Assembly: GCA_020725385.1 (NCBI GenBank) | Contig: DYFC01000047.1 | Coordinates: 1-34,131, forward strand | Direction: 5' to 3' | From: Nitrospira japonica | GTDB taxonomy: Bacteria; Nitrospirota; Thermodesulfovibrionia; Thermodesulfovibrionales; SM23-35 | DNA: 34,131 nt | Shown: positions 1 through 29,772 of the stretch, piece by piece | How the letters are laid out: each line of letters opens with the position of its first letter | How positions within the stretch are numbered: the first letter of the stretch is position 1 | Notes under the pieces: generated by a model | What the model saw: the letters and a program-made list of their open reading frames with translations, nothing else | The model's database searches: none | Told to the model about the DNA's origin: nothing | Position numbers and translations under genes: made by a program

Positions 1-252
1 TCTTTCAGGATTATTTTCAACAAATACTGATTTTTTAGCGCCTCTTGATAAAGCTTCAAAGCCAACAGTTCCTGTTCCTGCATATAAATCAAGGAATATT
101 GCACCATTTATTTTATCTCTTATAATATTAAACAGTGCTTCTCTGACTTTTGAGGTAGTTGGTCTGAGTCTGTATTCTTTATCCCCTTTTTTCCTTAAAA
201 GACCTGCTGAACCTATTTTTCTACCCTTTGCGATTCCGCCTGATATTCTCAT
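1..252 (-). CDS. rsmD: 16S rRNA (guanine966-N2) methyltransferase RsmD, 5' part (runs off window)
   Basis: Manual translation from ATG 252: MRISGGIAKGRKI...LRPTTSKVREALFNI...FLDLYAGTGTVGFEALSRGA; typical RsmD N-terminus and SAM-binding motif. Confidence 0.92.
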   Translation of the reverse strand, partial: MRISGGIAKGRKIGSAGLLRKKGDKEYRLRPTTSKVREALFNIIRDKINGAIFLDLYAGTGTVGFEALSRGAKKSVFVENNPER

Positions 253-300
253 TTGACTATATCTTACTACAAGAAATCAGGTGCTGCAAGAAATATAAAA

Positions 301-735
301 TTACAATTTTAAAAGAGTTAAGCCTGATACTGGATCAAGTTCTCTTTTTGCATTGACTCCTTCTATTTCAATAATTACTATTTCAAGAACTAAAAATGTT
401 GAAGATTCACCCCTGAGACATCCGACTTTTACATTATCTTTTTTCCCGAATGCTCCGTGAAAATGTACTTTTGGTTCGTTTTCCTGCCAGAATATAGTAC
501 CTATTCCTAACATTTCGGTACTTTCATTCATTTCACGCCATACAGGTACAGGCGGCATCTCTTCTTTCTCAGGACCAACTACTATTTTGCCCTGTTTTAT
601 TCCGCCAAGCAGATAACATATTGCACTTTTTACATTTTCTTTCTTTGCAATATCAATTATTGCTCCTAAAATATCTTCCTTATCTTCAAGTCTGCCAACA
701 AGAATTCTTCCACATTTTCCTACTTGATATTTCAT
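301..735 (-). CDS. PPC domain / DUF296 putative DNA-binding protein
   Basis: GRILVGRLEDKEDIL and EMLGIGTIF...PKVHFHGAFG motifs; AGGAGG before ATG 735 favours this start over 801. Confidence 0.85.
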   Translation of the reverse strand: MKYQVGKCGRILVGRLEDKEDILGAIIDIAKKENVKSAICYLLGGIKQGKIVVGPEKEEMPPVPVWREMNESTEMLGIGTIFWQENEPKVHFHGAFGKKDNVKVGCLRGESSTFLVLEIVIIEIEGVNAKRELDPVSGLTLLKL

Positions 736-1010
736 AAAAACCTCCTGATTTTTATTAGAGTATTTTAACCCGAATAATGCTAACATTGCTAAAAAAATCA
801 TTCATCATATCCAGTTTCTGTGAAACTAATTTTTTATATTTATATTAATAACCCAATAACATACAACGAACAATGGCTATCCGGTATCGGAAAATAAATT
901 TTTTCACATTATCAGCATTATTTTAGTTGCATTTTTGGGCGTTAAGATACCAAATTTGCTTTCCGATCAAGAATATTAAAGATAAATATATATCTTTTAC
1001 AATGAACTTA

Positions 1011-1019
1011 TGATATAAT
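1011..1019 (+). promoter_or_regulatory. Extended -10 element TGATATAAT upstream of ompA-like gene
   Basis: Exact TGnTATAAT match. Confidence 0.45.
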
Positions 1020-1138
1020 TTTTCTAATCATTCAGAAAATAAAATATGCTACTTTTTTAAAATAAAAGGAGGTGATATATGATATTATTTTCAGGAATGG
1101 CAGCAAATCGATAAATTATTCTTGAAGGAGGTGCAAAA

Positions 1139-1908: not shown

Positions 1909-3702
1909 ATGCATAAAGGAATATGGGATCTTACACCACTTTTTAAAAACGACAATGACCCTGAAATTGAAAATAAACGCAAACTAACCGAAAAGCTAAG
2001 TTATGATTTCATTAATAAATGGAAACACAGAAGAGATTATTTAAAGAATCCTCAAATACTTAAAGAGGCTCTTGATGATTACGAAAAATGGAAGAGAAAA
2101 TGTGGTTCTGAAGGAGATGAAGGATATTATTTCTGGCTTAGGACAACACAGGATCAAAATAACCCTGAATTAAAAGCTAAATTTAATACAATCGAGCATA
2201 TTAGCAAAAAAATTGAGAATGATATACAGTTTTTTTATCTAAGAATTGCAAGAATCCTAAAAACTGACCAAAAAAAATTTCTTGATTTTAAAGGACTTAA
2301 AAATTATAGGCATTATCTTGAAAGACTTTTTAATGAATCAAAATATTTACTCAAAGAAAATGAAGAAAAAATCATAAACCTTAAGTCATCAACATCACAC
2401 TCTAATTGGGTGAAGATGACTTCAAGTTTTCTTTCTAAAGAAGAAAGAGTTGTTCTTTCTGAAGAAGGTAAAAAACAGAATAAAAACTTCTCTGAATTAA
2501 TGAGTCTTATGAACAGCAAAAATAAAAATGTTAGAGACTCTGCAGCAAAAGCTTTCAACGATATTCTAATAAAACATGCTGATGTTGCTGAAGCAGAAAT
2601 AAATTCAGTTCTTGCAAATAAAATGATTGATGATGAATTGCGTAAAATGCCAAGACCTGATATAGCAAGACACATCAGCGATGATATTGAAACAGAAGTT
2701 GTTGACACAATTATTGAAACAGTTTGTAGCCATTTTGATATATCTTCGGAATATTATTTCTTAAAAGCAAAGTTACTTAATGTTAAAAAATTAAAATATC
2801 ATGAAAGAAACGTTGAGTTTGGCAATATTTCAAAAAGTTACAGCTATAATGATTCTGTAAAACTAATTCAGAGTGTTCTAAAAAAACTTGATTCCCGTTT
2901 TTATAACATTTTCATGAAATTTATTAATAATAATCAAATAGATGTTTATCCAAAGAAAGGTAAAGTAAGCGGCGCATTTTGTGCGCATAATCTTATATCA
3001 CAACCTACTTATATTTTATTGAATCATACAGGTAAGCTTAACGATGTGCTAACTTTTGCCCATGAAGTTGGTCATGGAATAAATAACGAATTGATAAAAG
3101 AAAAACAGAATGCCCTTAATTTTGGAACTCCTCTATCAACAGCAGAAGTTGCAAGCACTTTTATGGAAGATTTTGTTCTTGCAGAGATACTAAAAAATGC
3201 TGATGATGAATCGAGACTTGCAATCATGATGATGAAATTAAATGACGATATTTCAACTATCTTTAGACAGGCTGCATGTTACAGATTTGAACAAGAACTT
3301 CATACTGCCTTCAGGAAAAAAGGTTATCTATCAAAAAATGAAATAGGATTAATGTTTCAGAAACATATGACCGCATATATGGGTGAAGCAGTGGAACAGT
3401 CTCCCGGTTCTGAAAACTGGTGGATATACTGGAGTCATATTAGAAGTTTTTTCTATGTTTACTCTTACGCAAGCGGTCTGCTTATATCTAAATCTCTACA
3501 GAATTCCTATAGAAAAGACCATAAATTTATTGAAAAAATAATTAGTTTCCTCTCATCAGGCTTATCAGATTCACCGAAAAATATCTTCAAAAAACTCGGA
3601 ATTGATATAACTGATTTTAAATTTTGGGAAACAGGTATTAAAGAAGTAGAATCATTGCTCGATGAAACAACTGAACTTGCAATAAAACTTGGTAAGATTT
3701 AA
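1909..3702 (+). CDS. pepF: Oligoendopeptidase F (M3B zinc peptidase)
   Basis: WDL N-terminus, GKVSGAFC, HEVGH zinc motif, AEVASTFME, FYVYSYA. Confidence 0.9.
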   Translation: MHKGIWDLTPLFKNDNDPEIENKRKLTEKLSYDFINKWKHRRDYLKNPQILKEALDDYEKWKRKCGSEGDEGYYFWLRTTQDQNNPELKAKFNTIEHISKKIENDIQFFYLRIARILKTDQKKFLDFKGLKNYRHYLERLFNESKYLLKENEEKIINLKSSTSHSNWVKMTSSFLSKEERVVLSEEGKKQNKNFSELMSLMNSKNKNVRDSAAKAFNDILIKHADVAEAEINSVLANKMIDDELRKMPRPDIARHISDDIETEVVDTIIETVCSHFDISSEYYFLKAKLLNVKKLKYHERNVEFGNISKSYSYNDSVKLIQSVLKKLDSRFYNIFMKFINNNQIDVYPKKGKVSGAFCAHNLISQPTYILLNHTGKLNDVLTFAHEVGHGINNELIKEKQNALNFGTPLSTAEVASTFMEDFVLAEILKNADDESRLAIMMMKLNDDISTIFRQAACYRFEQELHTAFRKKGYLSKNEIGLMFQKHMTAYMGEAVEQSPGSENWWIYWSHIRSFFYVYSYASGLLISKSLQNSYRKDHKFIEKIISFLSSGLSDSPKNIFKKLGIDITDFKFWETGIKEVESLLDETTELAIKLGKI

Positions 3703-11341: not shown

Positions 11342-11383
11342 CCTCTCTTTACACTCTTAGCTCTTAGCTATTCGCTCTTTGCT
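11342..11383 (-). repeat. Degenerate heptamer array, family A (AGAGCNN on mRNA)
   Basis: About 5 units starting at the TAG stop of the 11382 gene. Confidence 0.7.
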
Positions 11384-12668
11384 AATTTTTGCCCGTATGG
11401 CATACTGTACATCCGTTAAATTCACCGCTCGCTGGCCAGCCTTTATAATCCCATCTCATAATTTTTGAATATGGTGAACCATGCGCTCTATGACATGAAA
11501 GACACATAACAAGGTCAGTTCCGAGTCTCACTGTGGCATCAGGAGTAGTCCATCCATTAAGTGTGGGTCTCGCAACAGGAACTCGGGGATCATAAGTTCC
11601 AGTACCTCCGGTTGCATTATACGCACTTGCAAACTCACCGGAATTAGGAATCACAGCATCAGATGGATGTCTGATCCATGCATTTGATGTTGATTGTTCT
11701 ATATGAAAATTACCATGACATCCTGTACAATAGGCAGTCATGGTATTTCCAAGTGCAGAAAAACCACCTGCGCTTGTTTTTGTTCCAGAATAGCCTAAAT
11801 ATTCATTATGAACAGTACTACTTGCATCGTGTTGCCAGTTTACATCTATAAGTCCGGTTACGCCATGACCCGAACCACTTTGATGGCCTGAAAGAAACCT
11901 GAACCAGCCATCGGATGTGCTATTTTTTAATGGATCCGTATCATTAATATGATGATAACCTTTTGGAAAATCAGTTCCCACCATATGACATTTTGTGCAT
12001 CCTTGTCTTGCACCCGGGAACCCGAACGATGGCGGGCTTGTACTGGCGTATAAATTTTTGTGACATGCATTTACACCTCCGCATGTTCCTCCACCAACAT
12101 CTCCAGGAGCAGAAGACAGATTATCATCTCCATTTCCTAAAAAAACATTATGACCTTTTGTATCATTTTCAGAGCTTGCAACTCCTGTAGAGACCCAATA
12201 GAAATTACCGCCTGATAAAGGATTTGCAGGATAGCCTGTTGTATTAAATACAATTGGGACTTTTTGCCCCCCTGGCAAAGTTTTTATCGTCTCGCCATCT
12301 GTTGAACTGTGACAGCCAAGACAGGTAGCATTTAACAGAGTTTCATTAGGAGTATTTAGAGTTCCCGAGCCTCCCCATGGGGTATCACCACGATTCATAG
12401 CCTGTCCATTTTGACTGTTGTGCATTGTATGACAATTAACACAGGGACCGGTAACTTTTGCATAAAGCGCTGTTGTAAAAATCAAAGAAGAAATTATAAA
12501 AAACAAAAAACCTAGTTTACCTGGTTTACTTAGTTTACTCAGTTTATCGAGTTGGAATATCTGAACAATTATTTTCAACCATGTAAACAGTGTAAACTGA
12601 GTAAACTGAGTAAACTGGGTAAACAATGTTAACTGTGTAACTTTTTTTATTTGAGTTGATTTTTTCAT
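11382..12668 (-). CDS. OmcS-like multiheme cytochrome (6 CxxCH + 1 CX5CH)
   Basis: CVNCHTMHNS, GGNF, KGHNV, APG, RHPSD, CLSCHRAH and terminal CTVCH follow OmcS motif order. Confidence 0.85.
   Translation of the reverse strand: MKKSTQIKKVTQLTLFTQFTQFTQFTLFTWLKIIVQIFQLDKLSKLSKPGKLGFLFFIISSLIFTTALYAKVTGPCVNCHTMHNSQNGQAMNRGDTPWGGSGTLNTPNETLLNATCLGCHSSTDGETIKTLPGGQKVPIVFNTTGYPANPLSGGNFYWVSTGVASSENDTKGHNVFLGNGDDNLSSAPGDVGGGTCGGVNACHKNLYASTSPPSFGFPGARQGCTKCHMVGTDFPKGYHHINDTDPLKNSTSDGWFRFLSGHQSGSGHGVTGLIDVNWQHDASSTVHNEYLGYSGTKTSAGGFSALGNTMTAYCTGCHGNFHIEQSTSNAWIRHPSDAVIPNSGEFASAYNATGGTGTYDPRVPVARPTLNGWTTPDATVRLGTDLVMCLSCHRAHGSPYSKIMRWDYKGWPASGEFNGCTVCHTGKN
12511..12643. repeat. Inverted nonamer arrays, family B (GTTTACNNN / GTAAACNNN), inside signal-peptide coding region
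   Basis: Encodes TQFTQFTQF and LSKLSKPGK. Confidence 0.85.
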
Positions 12669-12669
12669 A

Positions 12670-12714
12670 CTCTATGCCCTTTGCTCTTTGCTCTTCGCTC
12701 TATGCTCTTCGCTT
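12670..12714 (-). repeat. Heptamer array, family A
   Basis: About 6 units filling the whole gap between stop 12717 and ATG 12668. Confidence 0.85.
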
Positions 12715-12716
12715 TA

Positions 12717-14006
12717 TTACCTTTTATGGCATTGAATACATAGTTGCCTTTTTCTATCAAAATAAAGCATAAACTCTGCTTTAGCTGAATGCATACTGTG
12801 ACATGTAAGGCAGGTTAAAGGTTTCCCGTCTCTTGGGTCTTTTGTGTCTTTTCCAAGTGGATGGGTTACCTTATGCTGCCCTTCATGACATCTTGCACAT
12901 GATAAAATTTCATCGGATTTTAAATATAATCTGTTCTCAGAGTGAGGAGGAATATGACACTGAAAACATTTTCTATCTTTTACCGGAGTGCACCTTATTT
13001 TTTTCAAAGCTTTTTCCATAAGAATAGTCTTCTTTTCGGTATTCTCATGACAGCTTGAACATACTTCTGTTTCTCTTGCTGTTAGATTCTTATCTTGTGA
13101 AGCGTGTTGACTGTGACACATTAGACATTCTGCCTTTTCCTTTATTAAATGTTTGTCATTTGCTTTTAAAACAAATTTATCTTTTTTATGGCAACTGAGA
13201 CATAAGTCTGTAACCTTCATTTTTACCGAGACGTTCTTATCAGTAGCAAAAGGATTGTGGCATTGTTCACACTTCATATCAAGAAATTCTTTATGTCCGT
13301 ATGGTCCAAGTAATCCTTTTTTATCAGAAGCATGACCGCTGTGGCACGAAGTGCATTTCATATTTTGAGTATATTGATTTATGGAAACGCCATTTATTGA
13401 GCACTTAACTGGATGGCATTTCACACAAATTTTAGTTGATGAATCAACAAGCTGGTTTTCTGTAGAAGATGCATGTGGCTCATGACATGACGCACATTCT
13501 CCGTTCTTAAACGGTTTGTGCACTACTACCTTTTTAAATTGTTCCTGTAAAGACTCATGGCACATCCAGCATAATTTTTCCTGCTCTTTTATAAGAAGAT
13601 GCTTAATAGCTCCACTATGTGCATAATGGCAATCCGTGCATAGACCTCTTTTTAAAACATGATGAACATATTTATTTTTTAGTGAATTCCTTATTTTTTC
13701 ATGGCATCCGAGACAAAGCTTATTTATGTCTTCTTTAATTAATCCTTTTATATCTCCTGAATGAGAATTATGACAGGAATTACATTTGCCTTCTTTAAAA
13801 GGTGAATGAACAACCGGATCAGAGAGTTTATCTCTCATTTTTATATGACATTGATAGCATAAAGCCGGCACACTGGCTTTTAAATCGCCTTGTTCAGCAA
13901 AAACAAAACCACCCCAGGTCAAAATAATTGAGGTTATGGCTAAGATTAAGATTCTAAATCCTGAACTGTGGACTTTGAACTTTGAACTTTGAACTTTTTT
14001 ATTCAT
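12717..14006 (-). CDS. 16-heme c-type cytochrome (doubled CXXCH type)
   Basis: 16 CxxCH counted; signal peptide; AGGAG before ATG 14006, overlapping upstream stop. Confidence 0.92.
   Translation of the reverse strand: MNKKVQSSKFKVHSSGFRILILAITSIILTWGGFVFAEQGDLKASVPALCYQCHIKMRDKLSDPVVHSPFKEGKCNSCHNSHSGDIKGLIKEDINKLCLGCHEKIRNSLKNKYVHHVLKRGLCTDCHYAHSGAIKHLLIKEQEKLCWMCHESLQEQFKKVVVHKPFKNGECASCHEPHASSTENQLVDSSTKICVKCHPVKCSINGVSINQYTQNMKCTSCHSGHASDKKGLLGPYGHKEFLDMKCEQCHNPFATDKNVSVKMKVTDLCLSCHKKDKFVLKANDKHLIKEKAECLMCHSQHASQDKNLTARETEVCSSCHENTEKKTILMEKALKKIRCTPVKDRKCFQCHIPPHSENRLYLKSDEILSCARCHEGQHKVTHPLGKDTKDPRDGKPLTCLTCHSMHSAKAEFMLYFDRKRQLCIQCHKR
13962..13996 (-). repeat. Heptamer array, family C (AAGTTCA), in signal-peptide n-region
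   Basis: AAGTTCA x3, AAGTCCA, CAGTTCA encoding KVQSSKFKVHSS. Confidence 0.75.
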
Positions 14007-17679: not shown

Positions 17680-17790
17680 CCTACTTAGTTTGCCTTGTTT
17701 ACTAAGTTTGCTCTGTTTACATTGTTAAAATAGTTTAAGGTATTACAACTCGATAAACTATGTAAACCGAGTAAACTGTGTAACCGGGTT
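17680..17790. repeat. Inverted nonamer arrays, family B, intergenic
   Basis: GTTT(A/G)C arm and GTAAAC arm with about 20-nt spacer, starting at stop 17789. Confidence 0.8.
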
Positions 17791-18868
17791 ATTTCCATTT
17801 TGCTTTTTCCATATCTTTTACAAGTTTCTTAACAATTTTGTAAGCAGTGTTTTCAACTGACCTTATTCTTCCCCAATCAAGCATAAAAATATCATCATCG
17901 CCCTTGACATAATATGTCTCGCACCAGATCACTTTATTCTTTCTTGCATCAATTAACCTTGCAGAAATCTCTGCTTCAGGAGCAATATCTGTACCAGAAC
18001 CACTGCGATACATATCAACAGAACCAACAAGCACTCCATCAATCCCTGCTTTTGCAGCTATTTCACTAACATGATTCAAGTCCAGTTCCCCTTTTTCTCT
18101 TACCCTTAAATCAACTATTAAACGTTTCACTTCTCCATATTCAATAGGAAGATATTTTTTGCTCTTAAATAACTCTGTCAAAAACATAAATGTTGTTATA
18201 TTTCCTGAATCTTTAACTTTGCTCATATTTTGAAAAGGCATTACAGCTATCTTGTAAACATCCTCTGTCTCTTTCTTTGGGAATAATGTTGAGAAAGACT
18301 TTAAGGCTCTGTTTATTATTTTGTCTGCCAGCTTTTCAATTGAGTTTATTTTTCCGATTTCAAGAATTCCGGCAAAATCATCGCCGGTTCCAGCAGAATG
18401 TTCGGCCCACATAACTGAGCCATCTGAGGTACTTATAAGTCTCATGGTTAATCCGAATTGAGGATTATCACTTTTGTTATAAGTATTTATTGTCCCGGTA
18501 AGAATAGCCTTTACATTTAATTCTTTGCCCATTTTTATAGCTATATCCTGGCATACACAACCAGTTGTTCTGATTCTCTCTTTGATCATAAAATTATTCA
18601 TACTTTCATCATCGAGAATCTCATATCCTTTTGATATTAGTTTATCCTTTAAAATGGGTATTGTTATTTTAATTGCCTCTTTATCTTCGCTAAAATTCTC
18701 AAAAGGAAATATAGCAATTTTAAATTTCTGAGATGGAAGATCAGCACAAACTTTAGAATATAAAGCGAAGAGCAGAGAGCATATAGCAAAAAATATAAAG
18801 TATTTTGCTCTTCGCTCTTTGCTCTTCGCTCTCGGCTCTTTGCTCTCGGCTCTTTGCTCTTTGCTCAT
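17789..18868 (-). CDS. Two-domain CsgG/DUF799-like envelope protein
   Basis: Two repeats of IA(I/V)xPFxN...G...RLI...W; signal peptide built from heptamer repeats. Confidence 0.7.
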   Translation of the reverse strand: MSKEQRAESKEPRAKSKERRAKYFIFFAICSLLFALYSKVCADLPSQKFKIAIFPFENFSEDKEAIKITIPILKDKLISKGYEILDDESMNNFMIKERIRTTGCVCQDIAIKMGKELNVKAILTGTINTYNKSDNPQFGLTMRLISTSDGSVMWAEHSAGTGDDFAGILEIGKINSIEKLADKIINRALKSFSTLFPKKETEDVYKIAVMPFQNMSKVKDSGNITTFMFLTELFKSKKYLPIEYGEVKRLIVDLRVREKGELDLNHVSEIAAKAGIDGVLVGSVDMYRSGSGTDIAPEAEISARLIDARKNKVIWCETYYVKGDDDIFMLDWGRIRSVENTAYKIVKKLVKDMEKAKWK

Positions 18869-18952
18869 TGCTCTACGCTCTTCGCTCTTTGCTCATGGCT
18901 CTTTGCTCTATGCTCTTTGCTTTTCGCTCTATGCTCTTTGCTCTTCGCTCTT
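18761..18952. repeat. Inverted heptamer arrays, family A
   Basis: About 21 units of AGAGCNN (mRNA) from stop 18952 through ATG 18868, then short complementary arm 18761-18790. Confidence 0.92.
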
Positions 18953-19527
18953 TAATATTTATACAGCGTATGCACAGCATCCCTTACAACATGAAGAACT
19001 GTTTCACTCAGTGTTTCTGCTTTTGCTCCGAAGTGTTTAACCATGAAACCTGCGCCACCTCTTGTTCTTGTAGCAGACCAGATAATGCTTCCAGAACCTG
19101 TATCAGCCATCATTAAAGTTATAGTTACTTCTGGAGCAGATACATTTCCTTCTCTTACCTCTCCATATTTATTAACTGCTCCAAGAATAACTGCCTGAAC
19201 ATTCAGTGTCTTACCTATAGATTTTATTTGCTCGGCATTAAGAGACTGAATATTTTTAATTTTCATGCTATCAAGAGCAGCTACAGCATCTCCGGGAGGT
19301 GATACCTCAACAAGTCCAGTTGCAAGAAGTTCGCTTATTACAACATGCCTGACAGCGTCGGCAGCAAATCTGTCACTCGTAAGATTATCCAGTGGTAAAA
19401 CCGCCACACGTTTTATATAGCTAAAATCAATATCCTGATTAATATAAAAGTCAGGATTCGCCTTGCCTCCGCAACCACAAATAATTAATAACACGCTTAA
19501 TAAAAATAATTGTTTTAAGTATCTCAT
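18952..19527 (-). CDS. CsgG/DUF799 (GNA1162-like) lipoprotein
   Basis: Lipobox ICGC; IKRVAVLPLDNL...AVILGAV...PEVTITL...IIWS. Confidence 0.75.
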   Translation of the reverse strand: MRYLKQLFLLSVLLIICGCGGKANPDFYINQDIDFSYIKRVAVLPLDNLTSDRFAADAVRHVVISELLATGLVEVSPPGDAVAALDSMKIKNIQSLNAEQIKSIGKTLNVQAVILGAVNKYGEVREGNVSAPEVTITLMMADTGSGSIIWSATRTRGGAGFMVKHFGAKAETLSETVLHVVRDAVHTLYKY

Positions 19528-19550: not shown

Positions 19551-19650
19551 CAGTTTACTCCGTTTACCCTGTTTACTTGGTTTACTTGGTTAAAACCGTT
19601 CGAACTGTGCAAACTATGTAAACCATGTAAACTAAGTAGACCGTGTAAGC
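19551..19650. repeat. Inverted nonamer arrays, family B, intergenic
   Basis: GTTTAC x4-5 then GTAAAC-like x5, starting at stop 19650. Confidence 0.85.
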
Positions 19651-20378
19651 TAAAATATTGTTTTAATAGCATCTTTTACGACTTCTCCTGCTGTTTCGCT
19701 CAATGTTTTACCTTCAGAACCAAAGTGTCTCATCCAGAAATTTGGACCTTCAGAAGTTTTTCTTATTGACCAGAGGACATTTCCTGTTGATGTTTCTATA
19801 AGTCTTAGATTTATAGTTACTTCAGGATAATTAATATTAACACCCCTTGAAATACCATAATATTCAACAGAACCGGTCATTACAGCGTCAGAGCCTGTTG
19901 AAGTTCCTATTTCTTTAATATCGGAGAGCTTTATCATGCTGATTGATTTTATTTTCATGTCTTTAATCAATCTCGAAACCTCTCCCGGTTCGACAACCTC
20001 TATCCCTCGTGATATTATTTCTGCTATAACTATTCTCCTGATTTTTTCTCCAGCTATTTCTTCTGTAGAAAAATTCTCAAATGGTAAAACAGCTATCTTT
20101 TTAATATTTTTAATATCAGTATCAGACCTTACATAGTGCTTCTGAGTCCCGCAACCATATACGAAAACAATGAACAAGCAAAGAGCAGAGAGCAGAGAGT
20201 ATAGAGCAAATCCCCCCCCGCTCCCGGCTCTTTGTTCTTTGCTCCCGGCTCTTTGTTCTTTGCTCCCGGCTCTTTGTTCTTTGCTCCCGGCTCTTTGCTC
20301 TTTGCTCTTTGTTCTTTGCTCTTTGCTCTTTGCTCTTTGCTCTCGGCTCTTTGCTGCTTTTATTACCAGAACCTGCAT
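19650..20378 (-). CDS. CsgG/DUF799 (GNA1162-like) lipoprotein
   Basis: Lipobox VYGC; paralog of 18952-19527; N-terminus of SKEQRAG repeats. Confidence 0.75.
   Translation of the reverse strand: MQVLVIKAAKSREQRAKSKEQRTKSKEQRAGSKEQRAGSKEQRAGSKEQRAGSGGGFALYSLLSALCLFIVFVYGCGTQKHYVRSDTDIKNIKKIAVLPFENFSTEEIAGEKIRRIVIAEIISRGIEVVEPGEVSRLIKDMKIKSISMIKLSDIKEIGTSTGSDAVMTGSVEYYGISRGVNINYPEVTINLRLIETSTGNVLWSIRKTSEGPNFWMRHFGSEGKTLSETAGEVVKDAIKTIF
20176..20355. repeat. Inverted heptamer arrays, family A, including 21-bp perfect repeats
   Basis: GCTCCCGGCTCTTTGTTCTTT x3 plus 1 variant at 20220-20303; complementary arm 20176-20210; C8 run between arms. Confidence 0.92.
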
Positions 20379-22813
20379 GTAAGGTTTCCTCCGATGTTAT
20401 ATGTTTCTTTTTTTACGTCTTCTTTATCATATGTGTAAGAATAATTAAGCTGTAATTCAAGAAATTTTGTTATATACCAGATTAAATAAGTACTTATGTT
20501 ATGCAATATTCTTGATTTCTCTTCCATAAAATTATGTTGATAAGATGCATTCATTCTAACAGCGGGCAGGAAAAGCCAGTCAATCATAATTCCTTCAGAG
20601 GAATTTGTATCTCCATCTGAATCAGTAACTTTCATTGTTCCAGATATACTGAAAAATCTACCCGGACGATAGGTTAAAATAAAACCGCCGTCCATTAGAT
20701 CCGAAGATGTAGCTCCTGTTGTTCTACTATATCCATATGAAAGGTTTGTAGATATTTTTGCAGTAAGCCGTGCATCAATTGTTCCTCTGATATATCTCAC
20801 CTTGGTGGTTAAATCTTCAGTGGGAGTATATGAAGTATAAGAAGATGAAGGATTTTCAATAGCATACGTTTTTGTTTGAGTATAACCAAAATCAGTTATC
20901 ATATTAACATCTCTGTGTAATTTTGAACCAATTGTTAGAAGATAAAGGTCATTCAATGATTGCTTTTCACTGAAGGTATAGCTAATTGTCCTTATAAACG
21001 ATAGATTAGCATCAAGAGTTAATAATGGAGTATAACTGAAGTTTATGCCATATGTATCCGACATAATATCAGATTCCTTTTTATTATCAAAAGATTCATT
21101 CTTCTGATAGCGCAAGGTTGTTGTCAAAGGTCTGAACATCTGCCATGAAACATGCCCTCCATATGACCTATTTACATTTATTCTAAGCTTTTTGTCTAAT
21201 TCAATTTCTGGCTTGCTAAATAAATTCTCAAAAGCTCCACCTGTTGCTTCAAAGAAAGATTCGGGTTCCTGATCTGTACGGTTAAGGAAATAGTTCAAAG
21301 AAAGGGTTACAGTTCTAACCGGTTTTATAACTGTTCCAAGACTTACTCCATTTGATATATAAGTGATAGTATCGGTTATTTTTCCTGTTACAGGTACAAT
21401 TTCAGTGCCAGAAGCTTCTATTTCTGTAACCAGAACATCAGATATAGAAGCTGTGTTTAGAGTAACAATTTTAAAATAAAGAGCCTTCTGAGGGCTTATA
21501 AATTTTATCTTGTACATATAAATATCATTTAATTGCTCTCTTTTATAGTCAGTTTCAACAGGCTGAATCTCCACCTTTGACCATGAACCTATCATATTTG
21601 AATCACTTCTATATACTTCAATATCAGTAATTGTTCCTTGAAGATTAGTTTCTGTACGAACATCTTTATTTACATAAAGAATAATTTTATTTACAGTATC
21701 CGTATTTGAGATAAGATGCACTCCTATATTTTGATTTCTATTTCCATTGAAACCGATATTAATAGTCCCTGATGATGTAGAAATAGGAGTAATATAATTT
21801 TTATCTATAAGCCCTGCAGCAGGATTCAGTGTATCAGCAGAAGGCTGGGTATCTGTGCCTGATGCATAAAGCCCCTCCTGGGCATATCTTAATTTGTCTA
21901 TTTCTGTTCCTGCAGGAGCAAAAGTCTGATTTTTATTTTTGACATAATTTCCCTGTAGTCCTGCTGTTATGCTGAAATTATTTCTAAAAAAAGTAGGATT
22001 GAAATTGATAGAATATGAAGCATTAAAACTATCATTTATTGTTTTAGTCGTAGAAGAGGTAGGAGTTTTCATTTCATCTCTGGTATATGTAAGATTATAA
22101 GAAAACTTAGCTGCTCTATAATTATAGTCATACCATGTACTTCCGGCATATTTGGTATTTGTGCTATCAAGAACTTTTGGCGAAAGATGATCGTAATCTT
22201 TTTGATAGTCTGCCTGTAGAGATAATGAAGGAAGGTTTTTGGGCTGTAGATTAAATCTTGAATAATAATATTCTGTTGTTCTTCTTTCATCATTCGAAAG
22301 GCTTGCTGAATTCCATTGTTCAAGTCTTCTTGTCCCTAAATCAAAACGATAAAGAGGATTCTGCAAGAATATATCAAGAGCAGGTTCTATAGCTCTAAGA
22401 TAATTACTTGTCTTATTGCCTTTTTCATCTTTCGTATGGCTGTCATTTAAGGTTGACCTGAGATATAACTGGTAAGAGATTAAAGGGGTAACTGATTTAT
22501 CAAGCCTGAAATAGTAATTCTGTAAAAAACTGTTTGATGATTCTGTCCTTGAACCATCTTCATATTGTTTTGTATCAGTATAATTAAAATTAAACCACGC
22601 AGATGGCCCCTCGGCATATGCATTTGAAAAAGCAAAGAGCGAAGAGCAAAGAGCGAAGAGCAGAGAGCAGAGAGCAATAAGAAAAAAGTTAACACGGTTT
22701 ACATGGGTTACATAGTTTACTCTGTTTACATGGTTTATACGGTTTAAACCGAGTAAACAAAGTAAACTGTGTAAACTAAGTAAACTGAGTGAACTTTTTT
22801 TCTTATAACCCAT
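20363..22813 (-). CDS. Large outer-membrane beta-barrel protein with inserted soluble domain
   Basis: Signal ending AYA, alternating aromatic beta-strands, C-terminal aromatic (RFW). Confidence 0.75.
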   Translation of the reverse strand: MGYKKKSSLSLLSLHSLLCLLGLNRINHVNRVNYVTHVNRVNFFLIALCSLLFALCSSLFAFSNAYAEGPSAWFNFNYTDTKQYEDGSRTESSNSFLQNYYFRLDKSVTPLISYQLYLRSTLNDSHTKDEKGNKTSNYLRAIEPALDIFLQNPLYRFDLGTRRLEQWNSASLSNDERRTTEYYYSRFNLQPKNLPSLSLQADYQKDYDHLSPKVLDSTNTKYAGSTWYDYNYRAAKFSYNLTYTRDEMKTPTSSTTKTINDSFNASYSINFNPTFFRNNFSITAGLQGNYVKNKNQTFAPAGTEIDKLRYAQEGLYASGTDTQPSADTLNPAAGLIDKNYITPISTSSGTINIGFNGNRNQNIGVHLISNTDTVNKIILYVNKDVRTETNLQGTITDIEVYRSDSNMIGSWSKVEIQPVETDYKREQLNDIYMYKIKFISPQKALYFKIVTLNTASISDVLVTEIEASGTEIVPVTGKITDTITYISNGVSLGTVIKPVRTVTLSLNYFLNRTDQEPESFFEATGGAFENLFSKPEIELDKKLRINVNRSYGGHVSWQMFRPLTTTLRYQKNESFDNKKESDIMSDTYGINFSYTPLLTLDANLSFIRTISYTFSEKQSLNDLYLLTIGSKLHRDVNMITDFGYTQTKTYAIENPSSSYTSYTPTEDLTTKVRYIRGTIDARLTAKISTNLSYGYSRTTGATSSDLMDGGFILTYRPGRFFSISGTMKVTDSDGDTNSSEGIMIDWLFLPAVRMNASYQHNFMEEKSRILHNISTYLIWYITKFLELQLNYSYTYDKEDVKKETYNIGGNLTCRFW
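22628..22795. repeat. Nonamer inverted arrays (22688-22795) plus heptamer array (22628-22677) forming the barrel signal peptide
   Basis: Encodes SLLSLHSLL / NHVNRVNYV / ALCSLLFALCS. Confidence 0.88.
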
Positions 22814-22890
22814 ACCTTTAAGAAAACTTCCTCCTTAAATATTCAAGTCCCTCAACCCCCTTTTTTGTTTCCTTATGTCATTTCAACTTT

Positions 22891-22960
22891 GTAAACCGGG
22901 CAAACTATGTAAACTATGTAAACTAAGCAAACCGTGTAAACTATGTTAACTGTGTTGACT
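22891..22960. repeat. Nonamer array, family B, single arm
   Basis: About 8 units GTAAACYRN directly after stop 22962. Confidence 0.85.
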
Positions 22961-22961
22961 T

Positions 22962-24716
22962 TCAATAAGGAAACATTGCTATACCGTATGGATTTTTACC
23001 AACTGGTATAACCTTTTCTTCAGATATAGTTGTTTTATCAACAACAGTAACAGAGTCATCTCCTCTGTTGACTGTATATATTTTTCTGCCTTCAGGATCC
23101 ATGATAAAAGATTTTGGTGAAGTTCCAACCTGAATATTTGCAATTACTGGCGATACAGTTGTTCTTGCTGCACTGAATGCTTCTGAAAAAGGCCTGATTA
23201 CCGTGATTTCTGATGGATATTCTTTTAGCAAATAAAAGCGGTCAATATCAGGGTCTGGAATTATGCCTGTTACCTTAGTTCCAACATTTGCTATCTCGCT
23301 GACAACACCGCTTTCATATCCTTTTGCTATAAGAACTATGTCGATAACTGACAGGTTGTCATAATTATAATTTCCAACATAAACTTTTCCACGCTGATAA
23401 TCAACTGCAAGGGTAACCGGAGACCATTGAACCGGAAGTAAAAAGATTTTTTCAGGCTTTAATTTTTGAGAATCCATTTTAATTAAAGTCACATCTTTTG
23501 AATTTTTGTTTGCAACATAAACATTAAAGTATTTATCCCTATAATTTCTAAGTGAATTAAAATCCTCGAAACTCAAGAATCTTGTCTGCTGTAAAATATC
23601 CAAAGGCGGATCCGCGACAATATATACAGGATTATTTCCTGTGTTTATCTTGTCAATCTCCTGATAAGTTGCACTGTCAACAACAGAGACATTATCCGAA
23701 CCATAATTGGCAATAAAAAGAAGTTCCCTCTCAGGAGATATTTTTGCAACTGTAATGCTCTCGGGTGAATTTCCAAAACGTAACGGAATTTCGGTTTCAA
23801 CCTTATGCGTGGTTGGATTTATAACAGAAACACTTCCAGAAACTGAATTTACAACATAAACTCTTGGTTTTTCTCTGATCTGACTGACTGCAATACCTCT
23901 TGGTTTTTTGCCAACCATAATATTTGCAACTACATCATCTGTCTGCCTGTTAATAACAGAAACATTATTGGAATCTTCATTTGTAACATATATAAGAAGA
24001 CTGCTTAATTCAGGTGATTGCGTCTTTAAAGAAAATATCGGATTAAACTGGAAACCATCTCTAATAGAATTATCTGAATTCCATGTTAAAAATAAAGGAG
24101 AGCTTTGATTTCTTATGACATTTAAATCAATATCTAATGTCAACCATTCAGATGGGATTGAAAGACTCGCTGTCCTGCCCTCTTTCTTTAATATTGCATC
24201 TTTTATCTTGAATTGAAGCTTTTTGTATCTTCCTTGAGGAATATTAACCTCGCCTAAAATTATCTGTTTGTTAGATAAAGAAATTGAATTTATCTTTAAT
24301 GGCTTTGAAGACACTTCCTTTGGTTCATTGTTTTCAGAAACTATTTGTATTGATTGAATCTCAAAAGTTATGTCAGTTGATACTTTTTCAGTGCCTTTAA
24401 GATAAATAATTACCTGTCCATCAGATATTCCACCTGATGTTATATGTTCCTTAACAGAAGAACAGCCAAAAGGCAAGCAGAGAGCGAAGAGCAAAGAGCA
24501 AAAAGCTAAGAGCATAGAGCGGAGAGCTGAGAGAAAAGGACGGGGAGCAAAAAGCAAAGAGCGTAGAGCGTAGAGCGTAGAGCAAAGAGCATAGAGCATA
24601 GAGCTTAGAGCGAAGAGCAAAGAGCGAATTTCACTAAACACAACTCTATAACCATTGGAAAAAATCCAAATGTTTAGTCCTGCAATTTTTTTATAAAACC
24701 GCTTATCATTCGACAT
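22962..24716 (-). CDS. Lipoprotein with DUF4382-like N-domain and YVTN beta-propeller
   Basis: YVTNEDSNNVSVI, YVVNSVSG, FIANYGSDNVSVVD, PVGKNPYGI; lipobox PFGC; start uncertain. Confidence 0.82.
   Translation of the reverse strand: MSNDKRFYKKIAGLNIWIFSNGYRVVFSEIRSLLFALSSMLYALCSTLYALRSLLFAPRPFLSALRSMLLAFCSLLFALCLPFGCSSVKEHITSGGISDGQVIIYLKGTEKVSTDITFEIQSIQIVSENNEPKEVSSKPLKINSISLSNKQIILGEVNIPQGRYKKLQFKIKDAILKKEGRTASLSIPSEWLTLDIDLNVIRNQSSPLFLTWNSDNSIRDGFQFNPIFSLKTQSPELSSLLIYVTNEDSNNVSVINRQTDDVVANIMVGKKPRGIAVSQIREKPRVYVVNSVSGSVSVINPTTHKVETEIPLRFGNSPESITVAKISPERELLFIANYGSDNVSVVDSATYQEIDKINTGNNPVYIVADPPLDILQQTRFLSFEDFNSLRNYRDKYFNVYVANKNSKDVTLIKMDSQKLKPEKIFLLPVQWSPVTLAVDYQRGKVYVGNYNYDNLSVIDIVLIAKGYESGVVSEIANVGTKVTGIIPDPDIDRFYLLKEYPSEITVIRPFSEAFSAARTTVSPVIANIQVGTSPKSFIMDPEGRKIYTVNRGDDSVTVVDKTTISEEKVIPVGKNPYGIAMFPY
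24474..24628. repeat. Heptamer array, family A (NNGCTCT on mRNA), downstream arm
   Basis: About 20 units encoding SLLFALSSMLYALCS... Confidence 0.9.
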
Positions 24717-25027
24717 AATTCCTCAAGTTCCAACAATACCTTTTCTTTGACATTGTTTTGTATATATTTCCTTTTTTCAAAAATAATCATCATATTTGCG
24801 TTTTCAAAACATGATCTTTTAGCAATATTTAAAAATTTAATAAAATCCTTCCTTGAATTACTTCCCGATCCTTCAGCAATATTATTCGAGATTGACAGAG
24901 CAGCTCCTCTTAGCTGTTCAGCAAATCTATATAACTTTTTATCTTCGATATCATCTGAAATATCAAACAATTCTTCTGCAATATCAATTGATTTCTTCCA
25001 TATGTCTAAGTTCTCAAACCTAAACAT
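24674..25027 (-). CDS. Four-helix-bundle protein (23S rRNA IVS protein family, Avd-like fold)
   Basis: FENLDIWKKS...QLRGAALSISNNIAEGSG...FIKFLNIAKRSCFE...MISGFI signature. Confidence 0.92.
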   Translation of the reverse strand: MFRFENLDIWKKSIDIAEELFDISDDIEDKKLYRFAEQLRGAALSISNNIAEGSGSNSRKDFIKFLNIAKRSCFENANMMIIFEKRKYIQNNVKEKVLLELEELCRMISGFIKKLQD

Positions 25028-25028
25028 T

Positions 25029-25088
25029 TCTCTTTGCTCTCCGCTCTAAGCTCTATGCTCTTAGGTCTTTGCTCTTCGCTCTTTGCTC
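25029..25088. repeat. Heptamer array, family A (AGAGCNN on mRNA), upstream arm
   Basis: About 8 units filling the gap from stop 25087 to ATG 25027. Confidence 0.9.
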
Positions 25089-26070
25089 ATTCCTTTACTT
25101 CAAACACCTGTATTCTGTCATTGAAAGTATCGGCTACGAGTAATCTGCCTGATATGTCAACTGCTATATCTCTTGGATGCTGAAACCAGCCTTCTCCCCA
25201 GCCAAGACCTCCAAACTCTGTGAGGTATTTTCCTGTTTTGTCATATATTGAAATCGTATGCCTCATATAATCATCTATGTATATCAGACCTTTTTTGTCA
25301 TCAATAGCAATAGATACAGGTCTGCTTAATTTTCCTGAACCACCGCCTTTTTCACCGAATTTGAAAAGAAATTTTCTATTTTCATCATAAACATAAACAC
25401 GGCTTTCTTCTTCGCTTAAAATATAAATCTTGCCTTCATTATCAATTTTTACATCAATTGTTTTTACCTTCTGACTGTTTTCCTCTGGAGAAATCGTCTC
25501 AATATATTTCCCGTTGCTATCAGTTATTATTATTCCCGGATAACTATTGCCAGCGATATAAAGATTTCCTTTTTTATCAGAAGATATTCTATATGGCATG
25601 AACTTATCACAATCTTTAAATCCTTCAACATAAATATCTTTTTGCCATATCAGGCATGGATTATAAACAGATATCCTGCATTTTTTATGTGATTTGCTTT
25701 GTCCCTGAATAACATACACATAGCCAGCGCTATCTACTGTCAATGCCTGCGGAGCATCTATATCATTTCTTTTATCAAGAGTTATAATTGGAAATAAATC
25801 TGCTGTATATATAATTATCCTTCCCATTCCATCAATTACATATATCTCATTTTTTACAGGTTCAGAATATACAAAAGAAGGATAACGTATTCTCAAGTCC
25901 TCTTCATCTGTGCTTATATAATTCAGATAATTCACAGATGGGTTAGCATAAGCAAAATTAGCAAAAATTGATATTATGAACTGAAATATTATTGCTTTTG
26001 ATATTAATTTTATGTTTTGCTTCTTACACATAACTAAACCACCTTCGTTAAACCTCTTCATTTTTTTCAT
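25087..26070 (-). CDS. NHL-repeat beta-propeller protein, exported
   Basis: FGEKGGGSGKLSRPVSIA, FQHPRDIAVD...VADTFNDRIQVF; start may be ATG 26031. Confidence 0.88.
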   Translation of the reverse strand: MKKMKRFNEGGLVMCKKQNIKLISKAIIFQFIISIFANFAYANPSVNYLNYISTDEEDLRIRYPSFVYSEPVKNEIYVIDGMGRIIIYTADLFPIITLDKRNDIDAPQALTVDSAGYVYVIQGQSKSHKKCRISVYNPCLIWQKDIYVEGFKDCDKFMPYRISSDKKGNLYIAGNSYPGIIITDSNGKYIETISPEENSQKVKTIDVKIDNEGKIYILSEEESRVYVYDENRKFLFKFGEKGGGSGKLSRPVSIAIDDKKGLIYIDDYMRHTISIYDKTGKYLTEFGGLGWGEGWFQHPRDIAVDISGRLLVADTFNDRIQVFEVKE

Positions 26071-26183: not shown

Positions 26184-26243
26184 CAAACTGTTTTAACTGA
26201 CTTAACCATGTAAACTGTGTAAACCAAGTAAACTATGTAAACT
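26184..26243. repeat. Nonamer array, family B, single arm
   Basis: GTAAACTGT GTAAACCAA GTAAACTAT GTAAACT plus degenerate units. Confidence 0.8.
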
Positions 26244-26259
26244 TTTTAGATGGTTTACA

Positions 26260-27466: not shown

Positions 27467-27506
27467 CAACCGTGTAAACTGTGTAAACTAAGTAAACTAT
27501 GTAAAT
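27467..27506. repeat. Nonamer array, family B, in 5' leader
   Basis: GTAAACTGT GTAAACTAA GTAAACTAT GTAAAT. Confidence 0.8.
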
Positions 27507-27523
27507 TGTCTAATTTATATAAA

Positions 27524-28611: not shown

Positions 28612-29772
28612 TTATTTTTTTGTATGACAGAAGAGGCAGCCTTTTTTATCCTTGCTTCCTGCTCCAGCCTCTGAATAATCCCATCTAAGTATATCAGGAT
28701 ATGGGCTTGCATGGGCTCTATGGCATGAAAGACACATTATAATGCTGTCTGAATCCACTGTATTTTCGTTACCTGTTGGATTCTGATAGGCAACTGGAGA
28801 TTCAAGACTGTAATTCACATATCCCTGATATTCTGAACCCGCATAACCTCCATGAACACCGCTGAATGATATGTCAGAGGGATGCCTTCTCCAGAGAGAA
28901 TTATATGCATGACCAACTTCTTTACTTCCCCCGAGATTAGGATTCGGATGAAACTTTCCATGACATTCTCCGCATAAATAACTTATTGTGTTCATTGAAT
29001 CATGTGTCTGATCTCCCTTATAGCCGTTATGTTCCGATTCACTCGCAAGATATTCCCAATCTTTATGTTCTTTTCCAACAATTCCATAAAGAAATCTATA
29101 ACTTTTTCCAACTGTTGAACCATCAATGGTACTGTCATCTTCATGATGTGCTCCATGCATTGCCCCAAATTCATCTTCAATGGTTCTATTGCCATGGCAT
29201 CCATACATACCAGAACATGAAAGCTGTTTGTACGAAGGCCAGTTAGAAGGTCCTGTTCCGCCCGGAATATTTACACTTTCAAGAAAACCCGGCGGAGTAT
29301 TCATTGGAGGACTTTCAATTAAAGATATTCCTTTAACATTATGTCCTTTTGAATAATCAGGATTAAACGGGTCGGCTACATAATAATAATTTCCACCAGC
29401 AAGATCTCCACTCTCCATGTGATGAATAACCTGTGGAACTCTCATTTTTCCTTTTTTAATAATATTTTCTGTGCCAGATGGGCTTTGACCATGACAGCCG
29501 AGACAACCGCCTATAGTCATAGACGGAAAAGGCCCTTTTTGATAAGCATATGTAACTTCTGCTCCTTCTTTGCTATAGTGCATTGAATGACAATCCTTGC
29601 ATTTCCCTTTAACACGAGCATCAACAACAGAAACAAAACAGCAAAGAGCAAAGAGCATTGAGCATAAAACATAAAGCGTAGAGTTTAGAGCGTAGAGCTT
29701 AGAGTCTTTGCTCTTCGCTCTTTGCTCTTTGCTCTTCGCTAATTTTATTTTCCCATATGACATATCAAACAT
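28612..29772 (-). CDS. OmcS-like hexaheme cytochrome (5 CxxCH + CX5CH)
   Basis: CKDCHSMH, GGNY, KGHNV, CSGMYGCH, RHPSD, CLSCHRAH, CLFCH; start 29772 or 29763. Confidence 0.85.
   Translation of the reverse strand: MFDMSYGKIKLAKSKEQRAKSKDSKLYALNSTLYVLCSMLFALCCFVSVVDARVKGKCKDCHSMHYSKEGAEVTYAYQKGPFPSMTIGGCLGCHGQSPSGTENIIKKGKMRVPQVIHHMESGDLAGGNYYYVADPFNPDYSKGHNVKGISLIESPPMNTPPGFLESVNIPGGTGPSNWPSYKQLSCSGMYGCHGNRTIEDEFGAMHGAHHEDDSTIDGSTVGKSYRFLYGIVGKEHKDWEYLASESEHNGYKGDQTHDSMNTISYLCGECHGKFHPNPNLGGSKEVGHAYNSLWRRHPSDISFSGVHGGYAGSEYQGYVNYSLESPVAYQNPTGNENTVDSDSIIMCLSCHRAHASPYPDILRWDYSEAGAGSKDKKGCLFCHTKK
29640..29740. repeat. Inverted heptamer arrays, family A, forming the signal peptide
   Basis: Encodes AKSKEQRAKSK then LYALNSTLYVLCSMLFALC. 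Confidence 0.85.

Follow-up and report, generated by a model that had tools for sequence, protein, structure and literature searches.

Contig DYFC01000047.1 of a draft genome assigned to Nitrospira japonica (assembly GCA_020725385.1; 2.46 Mb, 35% G+C, 71 contigs) carries, between two genes for beta-propeller proteins, a gene for a small four-helix-bundle protein of the family annotated as '23S rRNA intervening sequence protein' (PF05635) that is bracketed by inverted arrays of tandem heptamers. The window, i.e. the whole stretch of 34,131 nucleotides analyzed here, is this contig in its entirety (C45 of genome G000 in the numbering used below). The upstream NHL-repeat gene, the four-helix-bundle gene and the downstream gene for a YVTN/lactonase-type lipoprotein are all on the minus strand, and on their mRNA the order is 8.4 AGAGCNN units (25088 to 25030), the open reading frame (ORF), a 48-nt spacer and 21.4 NNGCTCT units (24625 to 24476). 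Tandem Repeats Finder reports the same arms on the plus strand as 21.4 copies of AGCAAAG at 24476-24625 (74% matches) and 8.4 copies of CTCTTTG at 25030-25088 (76% matches), bearing out the layout of about eight and about 20 units described in an earlier note made from the sequence of the window. The arrangement is tight at both ends: the NHL stop codon falls within the first unit of the 5' arm, the last unit of which lies 2 nt ahead of the four-helix-bundle ATG, and the YVTN ORF, in its longest open frame, begins with an ATG that makes it overlap the 3' part of the four-helix-bundle gene by 43 nt, and continues through the spacer and the entire 3' arm. The repeat pervades the window, with AGAGCNNAGAGCNNAGAGC occurring 69 times at up to one mismatch versus 0.01 occurrences expected from 100 shuffles.

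The best alignment of one arm to the other (24572-24624 against 25082-25030) extends over 53 nt at 90.6% (E 8e-16), and the variable positions follow in the same order in both; thus, the arms are inverted copies of each other, beyond being mere arrays of one unit. A 636-nt RNA comprising the cassette is predicted to fold with the arms closing off the ORF at -196.9 kcal/mol, versus -153.7 +/- 6.6 kcal/mol for 20 shuffles (z -6.6). Both results agree with the earlier suggestion that the arms can pair and place the ORF in a loop. A consensus scan found 24 promoter-like sites (15.1 +/- 4.8 expected), none of them within the 5' arm, and none of four terminator-like sites is located within 24400-25100.

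Table. Positions of the cassette, its neighbors and other AGAGC-type arrays in the window
Feature	Position	Strand	Remarks
NHL-repeat beta-propeller gene, upstream	25087..26070	(-)	stop overlaps YVTN start directly in five relatives
5' arm	25030..25088	(-)	~8 AGAGCNN units on mRNA; starts at NHL TGA (25087-25089)
Gene of the four-helix-bundle protein (117 aa; '23S rRNA intervening sequence protein')	24674..25027	(-)	PF05635, TIGR02436, 2GSC, 2RLD
3' arm	24476..24625	(-)	~21 NNGCTCT units on mRNA; YVTN ORF reads through
YVTN/lactonase-type beta-propeller lipoprotein ORF	22962..24716	(-)	longest open frame; true start uncertain
Gene-less hairpin	18761..18953	(-)	(AGAGCNN)~21, then short (NNGCTCT) arm; in 5' end of ORF 17789..18868
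Gene-less hairpin	20177..20360	(-)	(AGAGCNN)~19, then (NNGCTCT)~5; in 5' end of GNA1162-like lipoprotein ORF 19650..20378
Gene-less hairpin	29636..29740	(-)	in 5' end of cytochrome ORF 28612..29772
Single (NNGCTCT)~7 array	22627..22677	(-)	encodes hydrophobic leader part of ORF 20363..22813
Single (AGAGCNN)~6 array	12670..12717	(-)	just upstream of ATG of cytochrome ORF 11382..12668
Shorter AGAGCNN array	11354-11383		near cytochrome ORF 11382..12668

Arms of this kind are a recurrent property of the family. Every crude ORF was given a flank score by reverse-complementing the 200 nt to its right and aligning them to the 200 nt to its left, with a score of at least 27 counted as arm-positive. 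Across the 2088 testable ORFs of G000, scores have a median of 19 and a 99th percentile of 30; the window gene, scoring 83, ranks first. This genome has eight PF05635 matches, and beyond the window gene five are testable (two others lie at contig ends), with ranks of 3, 12, 13, 15 and 2004 of the 2088. These paralogs are only 22-31% identical to the window protein, and their arms are tandem 6-8-mers of differing sequence (ATTCAAN, CGGAAGTN, GTGAAA-like and CAGACNA). The family is present in 16 of 20 relatives (17 of 21 genomes counting G000), where 16 of 28 loci reach the threshold, again with locus-specific 7- or 8-mers. In G018, a complete genome, the family genes rank 1, 3, 11 and 1120 of 2226, and the ten other top scorers that were translated include, by eye, a transposase-like ORF, frames derived from repeats and pseudo-ORFs across CRISPR-like repeats. 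Each of the three inverted array pairs of G018 with a loop of at least 250 nt encloses a family gene, and the window cassette is the sole such pair in G000.

A cross-phylum set was assembled with a profile of five canonical members, as an alignment of the six diverged paralogs, used to find related loci, had no conserved stretch and was replaced by this tighter one. The set consists of the best 80 of 597 confirmed loci in species-representative genomes and spans Acidobacteriota, Bacteroidota, Planctomycetota, Verrucomicrobiota, Patescibacteria, Clostridia, Desulfobacterota, Gammaproteobacteria, Elusimicrobiota and others. Here 50 of 77 testable genes are arm-positive, versus none of 292 displaced segments from the same loci (medians 36 and 17) and 5 of 123 neighboring ORFs taken as a further control. 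Thus, the genome-wide association test that the earlier note had proposed is strongly positive in G000, in the complete genome G018, in the relatives and across phyla. The arm period in the 49 clearly periodic cassettes from this set and the relatives is 7 in 40, 8 in eight and 6 in one. In minimum-free-energy folds, at least 20 base pairs form between the 5' and 3' flanks of 60 of 78 cassettes and of 34 of 152 controls.

The loci also share a polarity. Upstream neighbors are co-oriented with the family gene at 70 of 79 loci and downstream ones at 65 of 77, and the median gaps to them (80 nt upstream, 51 nt downstream) are mostly occupied by the arms. On the sense strand of the 49 periodic cassettes, the 5'-arm unit has more G than C in 38 and more C than G in seven, and the 5' arm is purine-rich in 37 and pyrimidine-rich in 12. 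Both the co-orientation and the excess of G in the sense 5' arm speak for a constraint acting at the level of the transcript. None of these are rRNA IVS (intervening sequence) loci in the strict sense, a candidate that we rejected: the window has no Rfam family at gathering score and its cassette is flanked by protein genes, and no rRNA gene is found within 1.5 kb of the 80 loci or of 16 further loci scanned in the relatives (96 in all). The G000 assembly has no 23S rRNA gene.

Gene and arms behave as one unit. Of 808 comparable cassette pairs, merely 21 have a repeat unit in common (rotation distance of at most 1), whereas among the closest proteins (at least 62% identity) eight of nine pairs do; the unit-sharing pairs include cross-phylum ones, from Gemmataceae, Chthoniobacterales and Pyrinomonadaceae genomes. 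In none of the 11 close pairs compared is a flanking protein shared. At the NHL-YVTN junction itself, the earlier note had suggested looking for an empty site in relatives, and five have one. The orthologous junction is filled in G000 and in G010, a member of another genus, and empty in G001, G002 and G004, of the same genus as G000, and in G009 and G020. All five empty junctions have the YVTN start overlapping the stop of the NHL gene and lack an inverted AGAGC pair. The G010 cassette encodes a protein 71.8% identical to that of G000, has arms of the AGAGCNN type and shows the same 43-nt overlap with the downstream ORF. The flanking proteins of the two genomes are 60.4% and 53.7% identical, i.e. 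below the value for the cassette protein, and those of G000 resemble their counterparts in G001 and G002 more (70-71% and 61-64%) than those in G010. This discordance between the kinship of the flanks and that of the cassette implies that the cassette was either gained twice or transferred, or else lost cleanly several times, in either case block-wise.

In related strains, represented by contigs of three further studies, the cassette occupies the same site, its arms differing in length by whole units, with 7 nt more in the 5' arm and 21 nt more in the 3' arm. The contigs of four runs break at the arrays, hence no piece spans the whole stretch, and they include no strand-switch or inversion joint. 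One contig of X3 joins 24617 to 25065 with 447 nt skipped; it was rejected as an excised form, having only 24 letters on its shorter side and 20 other letters in between, and may represent another AGAGC hairpin. Taken together, the PF05635 gene with its own arms is one inserted cassette of a design found family-wide, a conclusion that we hold with high confidence. With regard to the earlier proposal of one mobile or RNA-processing system, the unity of gene and arrays stands, as the repeat unit tracks the protein clade and sites are found both filled and empty, whereas RNA processing receives no support from a test of wobble pairing between the arms, which gave no bias toward the sense RNA (see below).

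The cassettes are further linked to arrays dispersed over the genome. G000 has 73 loci with period-7 arrays, and four of its five largest array families match arm units of its own cassettes: AGAGC (~31 loci), GTAAA, ATTCA/TCAAA and ACAGA. Among the 264 arrays of G018, the families matching cassette arms are AGGCT-type (~45), a GGTGAAG octamer (31), GATTT (8) and ATGGA/AAGAT (12), and the largest family with no cassette match is ACAGA (24). Most arrays are single rather than paired. The AGAGC pattern has 102 matches in G000, 25 in G005, seven in G007, six in G010, three in G008 and 0-2 in the others. A rule that AGAGC arrays occur solely where an AGAGC-type gene does is thus partly true, as no such gene was found in G005. 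Outside C45, none of 16 AGAGC array loci of G000 lies inside a signal-peptide leader of an ORF: 14 are clear of any long open frame, one stops at the upstream edge of such a frame and one falls in an upstream extension that precedes the likely start. There is a real link between the cassettes and the dispersed arrays, which may represent satellites or relics, or else sites where cassettes preferentially land.

Several individual loci deserve a description. The ATTCAAN-armed paralog L002 (G000:C29:53348-56662) is found between co-oriented ORFs (1..1098 and 1937..2941) that by eye are RAMP-type cas-like, which would fit the reported presence of family members inside cas operons, e.g. between cmr3 and cmr2 (PMC3936711). 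The paralog L005 (G000:C29:42369-43354, gene 42519-42875) lies between 37-nt direct repeats ~75-80 nt apart, resembling a CRISPR array, and adjoins a row of minus-strand ORFs that holds the sole reverse-transcriptase match of G000 (ORF 44889-45821). In G018, L008 and L024 (C1:1518820-1522134 and 1735297-1738611) are 97% identical over 499 nt that take in both AGGCTNN arms; an in-frame TAA leaves each with a 76-aa truncated ORF, and each follows ~37-nt repeats spaced ~70 nt. In G001, L009 and L025 are of the AGGATTCR type and are 86% identical over 420 nt, a stretch running from the ATG through the 3' arm; their 5' arms are built of several copies of ~53-nt higher-order modules of three octamers and a spacer. 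A subfamily comprising L007, L020, L021 and L035 (G000:C37:40714-41091 and orthologs) has a distinctive N-terminus, FVFET..EIFEE, and its conservation extends over several genomes from this genus and family. Finally, at G000:C31:21216-21692 there is a 158-aa ORF, DUF559-type endonuclease-like by eye, that has complementary flanks (score 34, eighth among the 2088) and tandem NPLTPLTKGERH repeats at its end, possibly a further type of small gene flanked by array arms.

The 117-aa window protein is a full-length member of the family: it matches PF05635 over the full profile (positions 1-106 of 106, E 1.9e-30, 105.7 bits against a cut-off of 33.8) and TIGR02436 (E 9e-31, 106.3 bits, cut-off 24), and at the sequence level it also matches the solved pentameric four-helix-bundle structures 2GSC (E 4.7e-12) and 2RLD (E 1.2e-4). 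The conserved motif of the family is GxxRxxxSxxxNxxE (PMC3936711), of which the window protein keeps the S, N and E, with a Gly at the Arg position and an Arg one residue earlier; Q38, N49 and E52 are invariant in alignment A1. PADLOC returned no match for three of the proteins. The family resembles Avd, the accessory protein of diversity-generating retroelements, through structures 4DWL and 2GSC (PMC10053308), so that the link to both intervening sequences and Avd asserted in the earlier note is already in print (PMC4990558, PMC10053308).

The surroundings on the minus strand, as annotated by a family scan of 14 of the 34 ORFs of at least 90 aa, consist of an extended run of genes whose products are secreted redox and beta-propeller proteins: multihaem cytochromes (MtrC/MtrF-like and with paired-CXXCH domains), a peptidyl-prolyl isomerase (PPIase), lipoproteins, the NHL protein and the YVTN/lactonase-type propeller. 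Three further inverted AGAGC pairs lie in this run with no gene between their arms. First noted as gene-less arm pairs at 18761-18952, 20176-20355 and 29640-29740, they are real and predicted to fold as hairpins (z -3.7 for 18740-18965, -3.0 for 20165-20370 and -6.9 for 29625-29750), but rather than being a free-standing intergenic element each lies within the 5' end of an ORF that encodes a secreted protein. Two of them have a short 3' arm of about 4-5 units. The AGAGCNN arm of the second has a higher-order period of 21 nt at 94%, and the array at 20220-20343 expanded by steps of 21 nt, which keep the frame.

These positions give the arms a coding aspect. An AGAGCAA arm translates as a charged, Lys/Arg-rich n-region (SKEQRAK-like) and a TTGCTCT arm as a hydrophobic h-region (LLFALCS-like), the two going together because of codon complementarity, in which a middle A on one arm is a middle T on the other. 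Arm-encoded n- and h-regions are seen in the GNA1162-like lipoprotein, the cytochrome and an LpoB/FlgO-like protein (19650..20378, 28612..29772 and 17789..18868). All orthologs of the GNA1162-like lipoprotein have a leader with a lipobox, which is array-built solely in G000 and G010. Likewise, the 3' arm of the cassette reads in the YVTN frame as LLFALCS-like repeats ending in LPFGC, with the lipobox Cys, followed by SSVKEH, at the place where an ordinary lipoprotein signal peptide with IGC at its end, then ASVREH, is found in YVTN orthologs. This frame is intact in G000 and G010, with 21 and 12 units respectively, and in the strain variant with 21 additional nt. We infer that arrays in the 5' ends of ORFs are translated, since the frames are open, a leader is needed and the orthologs have one.

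A repeat whose unit is not a multiple of three lies between the start and the mature protein in ORFs 19650..20378, 28612..29772 and 22962..24716, as in contingency repeats. In Neisseria opa genes, CTCTT pentamers in the signal-peptide coding region reportedly encode the hydrophobic core of a phase-variable surface protein. Both kinds of repeat are pyrimidine-rich, have a unit that is not a multiple of three and are located in the region coding for a signal peptide. However, the window arrays are imperfect (74-78% matches) and have an inverted partner, and the sole variant in a translated arm is the frame-keeping one of +21 nt, with no out-of-frame allele among the contigs of related strains.

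A second class of repeats, tandem 9-mers of the GTTTACATG and TAAACTGTG types, is found in intergenic and 5' regions, often as adjacent inverted pairs. In the window they are located at 12510-12640, 17754-17783, 19553-19653, 22688-22795, 22885-22960, 26185-26248 and 27468-27513. Being multiples of three, they read as tripeptide repeats (TQF, NRVNHV-like) in the N-termini of ORFs 11382..12668 and 20363..22813. G001 and G004 have 9-mers at positions where G000 has heptamers.

Several known systems resemble the cassette in part. The family takes its name from ORFs in IVS of 23S rRNA; in Coxiella the ORF lies in the loop of an inverted-repeat stem, and tandem GACAGAT heptamers of strain-variable number precede the S23p ATG, with the 5' cut by RNase III at the first repeat, so that the stem cut by this enzyme has heptamers in it (PMC4990558). 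Older proposals quoted in the same source see the IVS as a remnant of transposition or as a mobile element with an ORF serving its mobility, and horizontal transfer of 23S rRNA IVS has been proposed too (PMC4990558). The 23S rRNA IVS (of Coxiella burnetii, and of Leptospira as cited in PMC4990558) shares with the window cassette the protein family, the ORF in the loop of a stem, the sense orientation to the transcript and, in Coxiella, tandem heptamers just 5' of the ATG with a copy number varying between strains. Unlike the IVS, which resides in helix 9, 25 or 45 of 23S rRNA, the window cassette has an operon mRNA as its host, between protein genes, and its arms are much longer (8 and 21 units), the 3' arm doubling as coding sequence of the next gene. 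Family members are also reported from insertions in 16S and 23S rRNA genes of bacteria of the candidate phyla radiation (CPR) (bioRxiv 10.1101/2024.02.27.582315). With Avd the window protein shares a homologous four-helix-bundle fold (PMC10053308); a reading as a diversity-generating retroelement was rejected, as no reverse transcriptase, template or variable repeat stands beside the gene and the sole RVT_1 match of G000 is at C29:45006-45620, beside a CRISPR array.

Correia repeat-enclosed elements are intergenic inverted-repeat insertions which are co-transcribed with their neighbors and can be bound or cleaved by RNase III, altering the expression of these neighbors (PMC2649163). They and other miniature inverted-repeat elements are comparable to the cassette in placing inverted repeats between genes and in mRNA (PMC2649163). 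Yet Correia elements are gene-less, have one consensus terminal repeat per genome and lack tandem heptamers, whereas each cassette has a unit of its own and an enclosed ORF. The cassettes do not behave as a transposon or miniature inverted-repeat element with a shared terminal repeat: in both G000 and G018 the arm units differ between copies. The filled and empty sites of the junction are too diverged to reveal a target-site duplication. Integron gene cassettes are small, promoterless, co-directional insertions with a hairpin-forming attC site. However, attC is found at one end only, has a defined structure and depends on an integrase, whereas the window cassette has arms on both sides.

The arms are also comparable to dispersed tandem heptamers of unknown function. 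TAACTGA repeats of this kind occur in Beggiatoaceae, cyanobacteria and Bacteroidetes, in sets of forward orientation just upstream of start codons (PMC4679880), and tandem heptamers are described from Xanthomonas (GGGAATC) and Nostoc, with 70-75 convergent inverted pairs in Xanthomonas (PMC4692102). Like the arms, such repeats (TAACTGA, GGGAATC and the short tandemly repeated repetitive, or STRR, sequences of cyanobacteria) are, by the published passages, tandem 7-mers, mostly intergenic and of strain-variable length. The passages of PMC4679880 and PMC4692102 contain no mention of S23, 'intervening' or 'four helix'. Unlike in those reports, the commonest array families of two genomes here match the arms of four-helix-bundle cassettes. 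A search limited to Creative Commons-licensed PubMed Central papers and bioRxiv found no report that ties family members outside rRNA to flanking inverted heptamer arrays.

These comparisons lead us to favor, with a probability of roughly 0.55, an interpretation of the locus as an IVS-type cassette that lies in sense in an operon mRNA and probably undergoes RNA processing. The PF05635 gene and its own inverted tandem-heptamer arms would constitute one heritable, horizontally moving unit, which would have been inserted in sense between the NHL and YVTN cistrons of an operon for secreted redox proteins. Having no evident promoter of its own, it would probably be transcribed by read-through, whereupon the arms, if they pair in vivo, would form a stem of about 55-60 bp that leaves the ORF in its loop. 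By analogy with the 23S rRNA IVS of Coxiella, the likely outcome would be endonucleolytic separation of the cassette RNA from its neighbors, with RNase III, for which G000 has a gene, as the presumed nuclease, and/or occlusion of the ribosome-binding site, which would be located in the last units of the 5' arm. The protein may bind its own heptamer array. After insertion, the 3' arm would have been taken over as the leader of the downstream lipoprotein, supplying the hydrophobic core of its signal peptide.

Certain observations weigh against this interpretation. An RNase III cut at this site would sever the YVTN leader; hence, cleavage here would have to be partial, regulated or absent, and processing would compete with expression of the downstream gene. 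About a third of the cross-phylum members (27 of 77) have no detectable arms, and the 80 loci, as the best 80 of 597 matches to the profile of one subfamily, are not a random sample. The subfamily of L007, L020, L021 and L035 has no tandem-repeat arms and may represent a domesticated member. In the window protein itself, residue 41 is Gly, whereas the G010 ortholog and five aligned paralogs have Arg or Lys, which may be a sign of relaxed constraint. Finally, in the same minimum-free-energy folds the antisense strand gives closing stems about as often (57 of 78 cassettes), and transition mismatches between the arms, which would leave a G:U pair in one of the two strands, do so 57 times in the sense and 76 times in the antisense strand (62 cassettes, p 0.12), i.e. 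without an excess on the sense strand. Together, the absence of a wobble bias and the equal frequency of antisense stems leave selection on an RNA stem, as opposed to homology of the arms at the DNA level, undemonstrated.

Such symmetric mismatches are what DNA homology predicts, and the arms might indeed act as DNA, either as the ends of a mobile element (via cruciforms or single-strand hairpins at insertion or replication) or as repeats kept similar by gene conversion, with the RNA stem as a by-product. We consider this unlikely, although it accords with the common order of variable positions in the two arms, as in an inverted duplication, with the presence and absence of the cassette at one junction and its occurrence at unrelated sites, and with the near-identical copies in G018 (499 nt) and the similar ones in G001 (420 nt, ATG through 3' arm). 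However, the unit has no transposase or recombinase, its copies within a genome, in contrast to classical terminal inverted repeats, differ in arm sequence, the contigs of the four runs show neither inversion nor strand-switch joints, and the co-orientation together with the G-rich sense 5' arm (38 versus 7) points to a strand-specific constraint on the transcript.

An explanation that we regard as less likely still has the arrays belong to the host genes, as signal-peptide modules and possibly frame-shifting contingency repeats, with the four-helix-bundle gene having landed in the loop of one hairpin. It draws on the translation of arms as n- and h-regions in ORFs 17789..18868, 19650..20378 and 28612..29772, on orthologs with ordinary signal peptides at the same place, on growth in 21-nt frame-keeping steps at 20220-20343 and by 21 nt in the translated 3' arm of a related strain, and on G005, with its 25 AGAGC matches and no AGAGC-type gene found; yet it leaves unexplained the arms at 50 of 77 loci across phyla, the repeat unit that follows the protein clade and the five empty junctions that all lack an inverted AGAGC pair, and outside C45 not one of the 16 G000 array loci is inside a signal-peptide leader. 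The arms could also form a translational switch, in which purine-rich, Shine-Dalgarno-like repeats paired with their complement would control the cassette or the downstream gene without cleavage. The end of the 5' arm 2 nt before the ATG would place the ribosome-binding region in the stem, the gap between arm and start is short at many loci, and purine-rich sense 5' arms prevail (37 of 49). Nonetheless, a switch is the least likely of these explanations, and in our view very improbable, given the pyrimidine-rich 5' arms of 12 of the 49 cassettes, stems of 20-70 bp that far exceed what occlusion needs, and RNase III cleavage as the sole experimental precedent known for the architecture (PMC4990558).

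Extended beyond the locus, the IVS-type interpretation leads to a broader conjecture, which we offer tentatively and consider possible but on balance doubtful: PF05635 proteins could be the missing partners of the enigmatic tandem heptamers of bacteria (STRR, TAACTGA and GGGAATC), each clade having its own 7-8-nt unit. The array-bracketed gene would then be the master copy, gene-less arrays would be its satellites or landing sites, the 23S rRNA IVS would be the small subset that landed in rRNA, and the hairpins could be recruited as signal peptides.

The locus thus appears to be one example of a general architecture of a large protein family, undescribed as far as our literature search reaches. 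The rule would be that most genes of this family, in many phyla and away from rRNA, lie co-directionally in operons, between inverted arrays of a cassette-specific heptamer. We know of no explanation of the IVS elements and their ORF since the early 1990s; if the rule holds, the puzzles of the IVS and of the tandem heptamers would become one. It would also make recognizable a class of small insertions that disrupt operons, cas loci and CRISPR arrays and cause assemblies to break, and would provide a simple route by which a hairpin may become a signal peptide.

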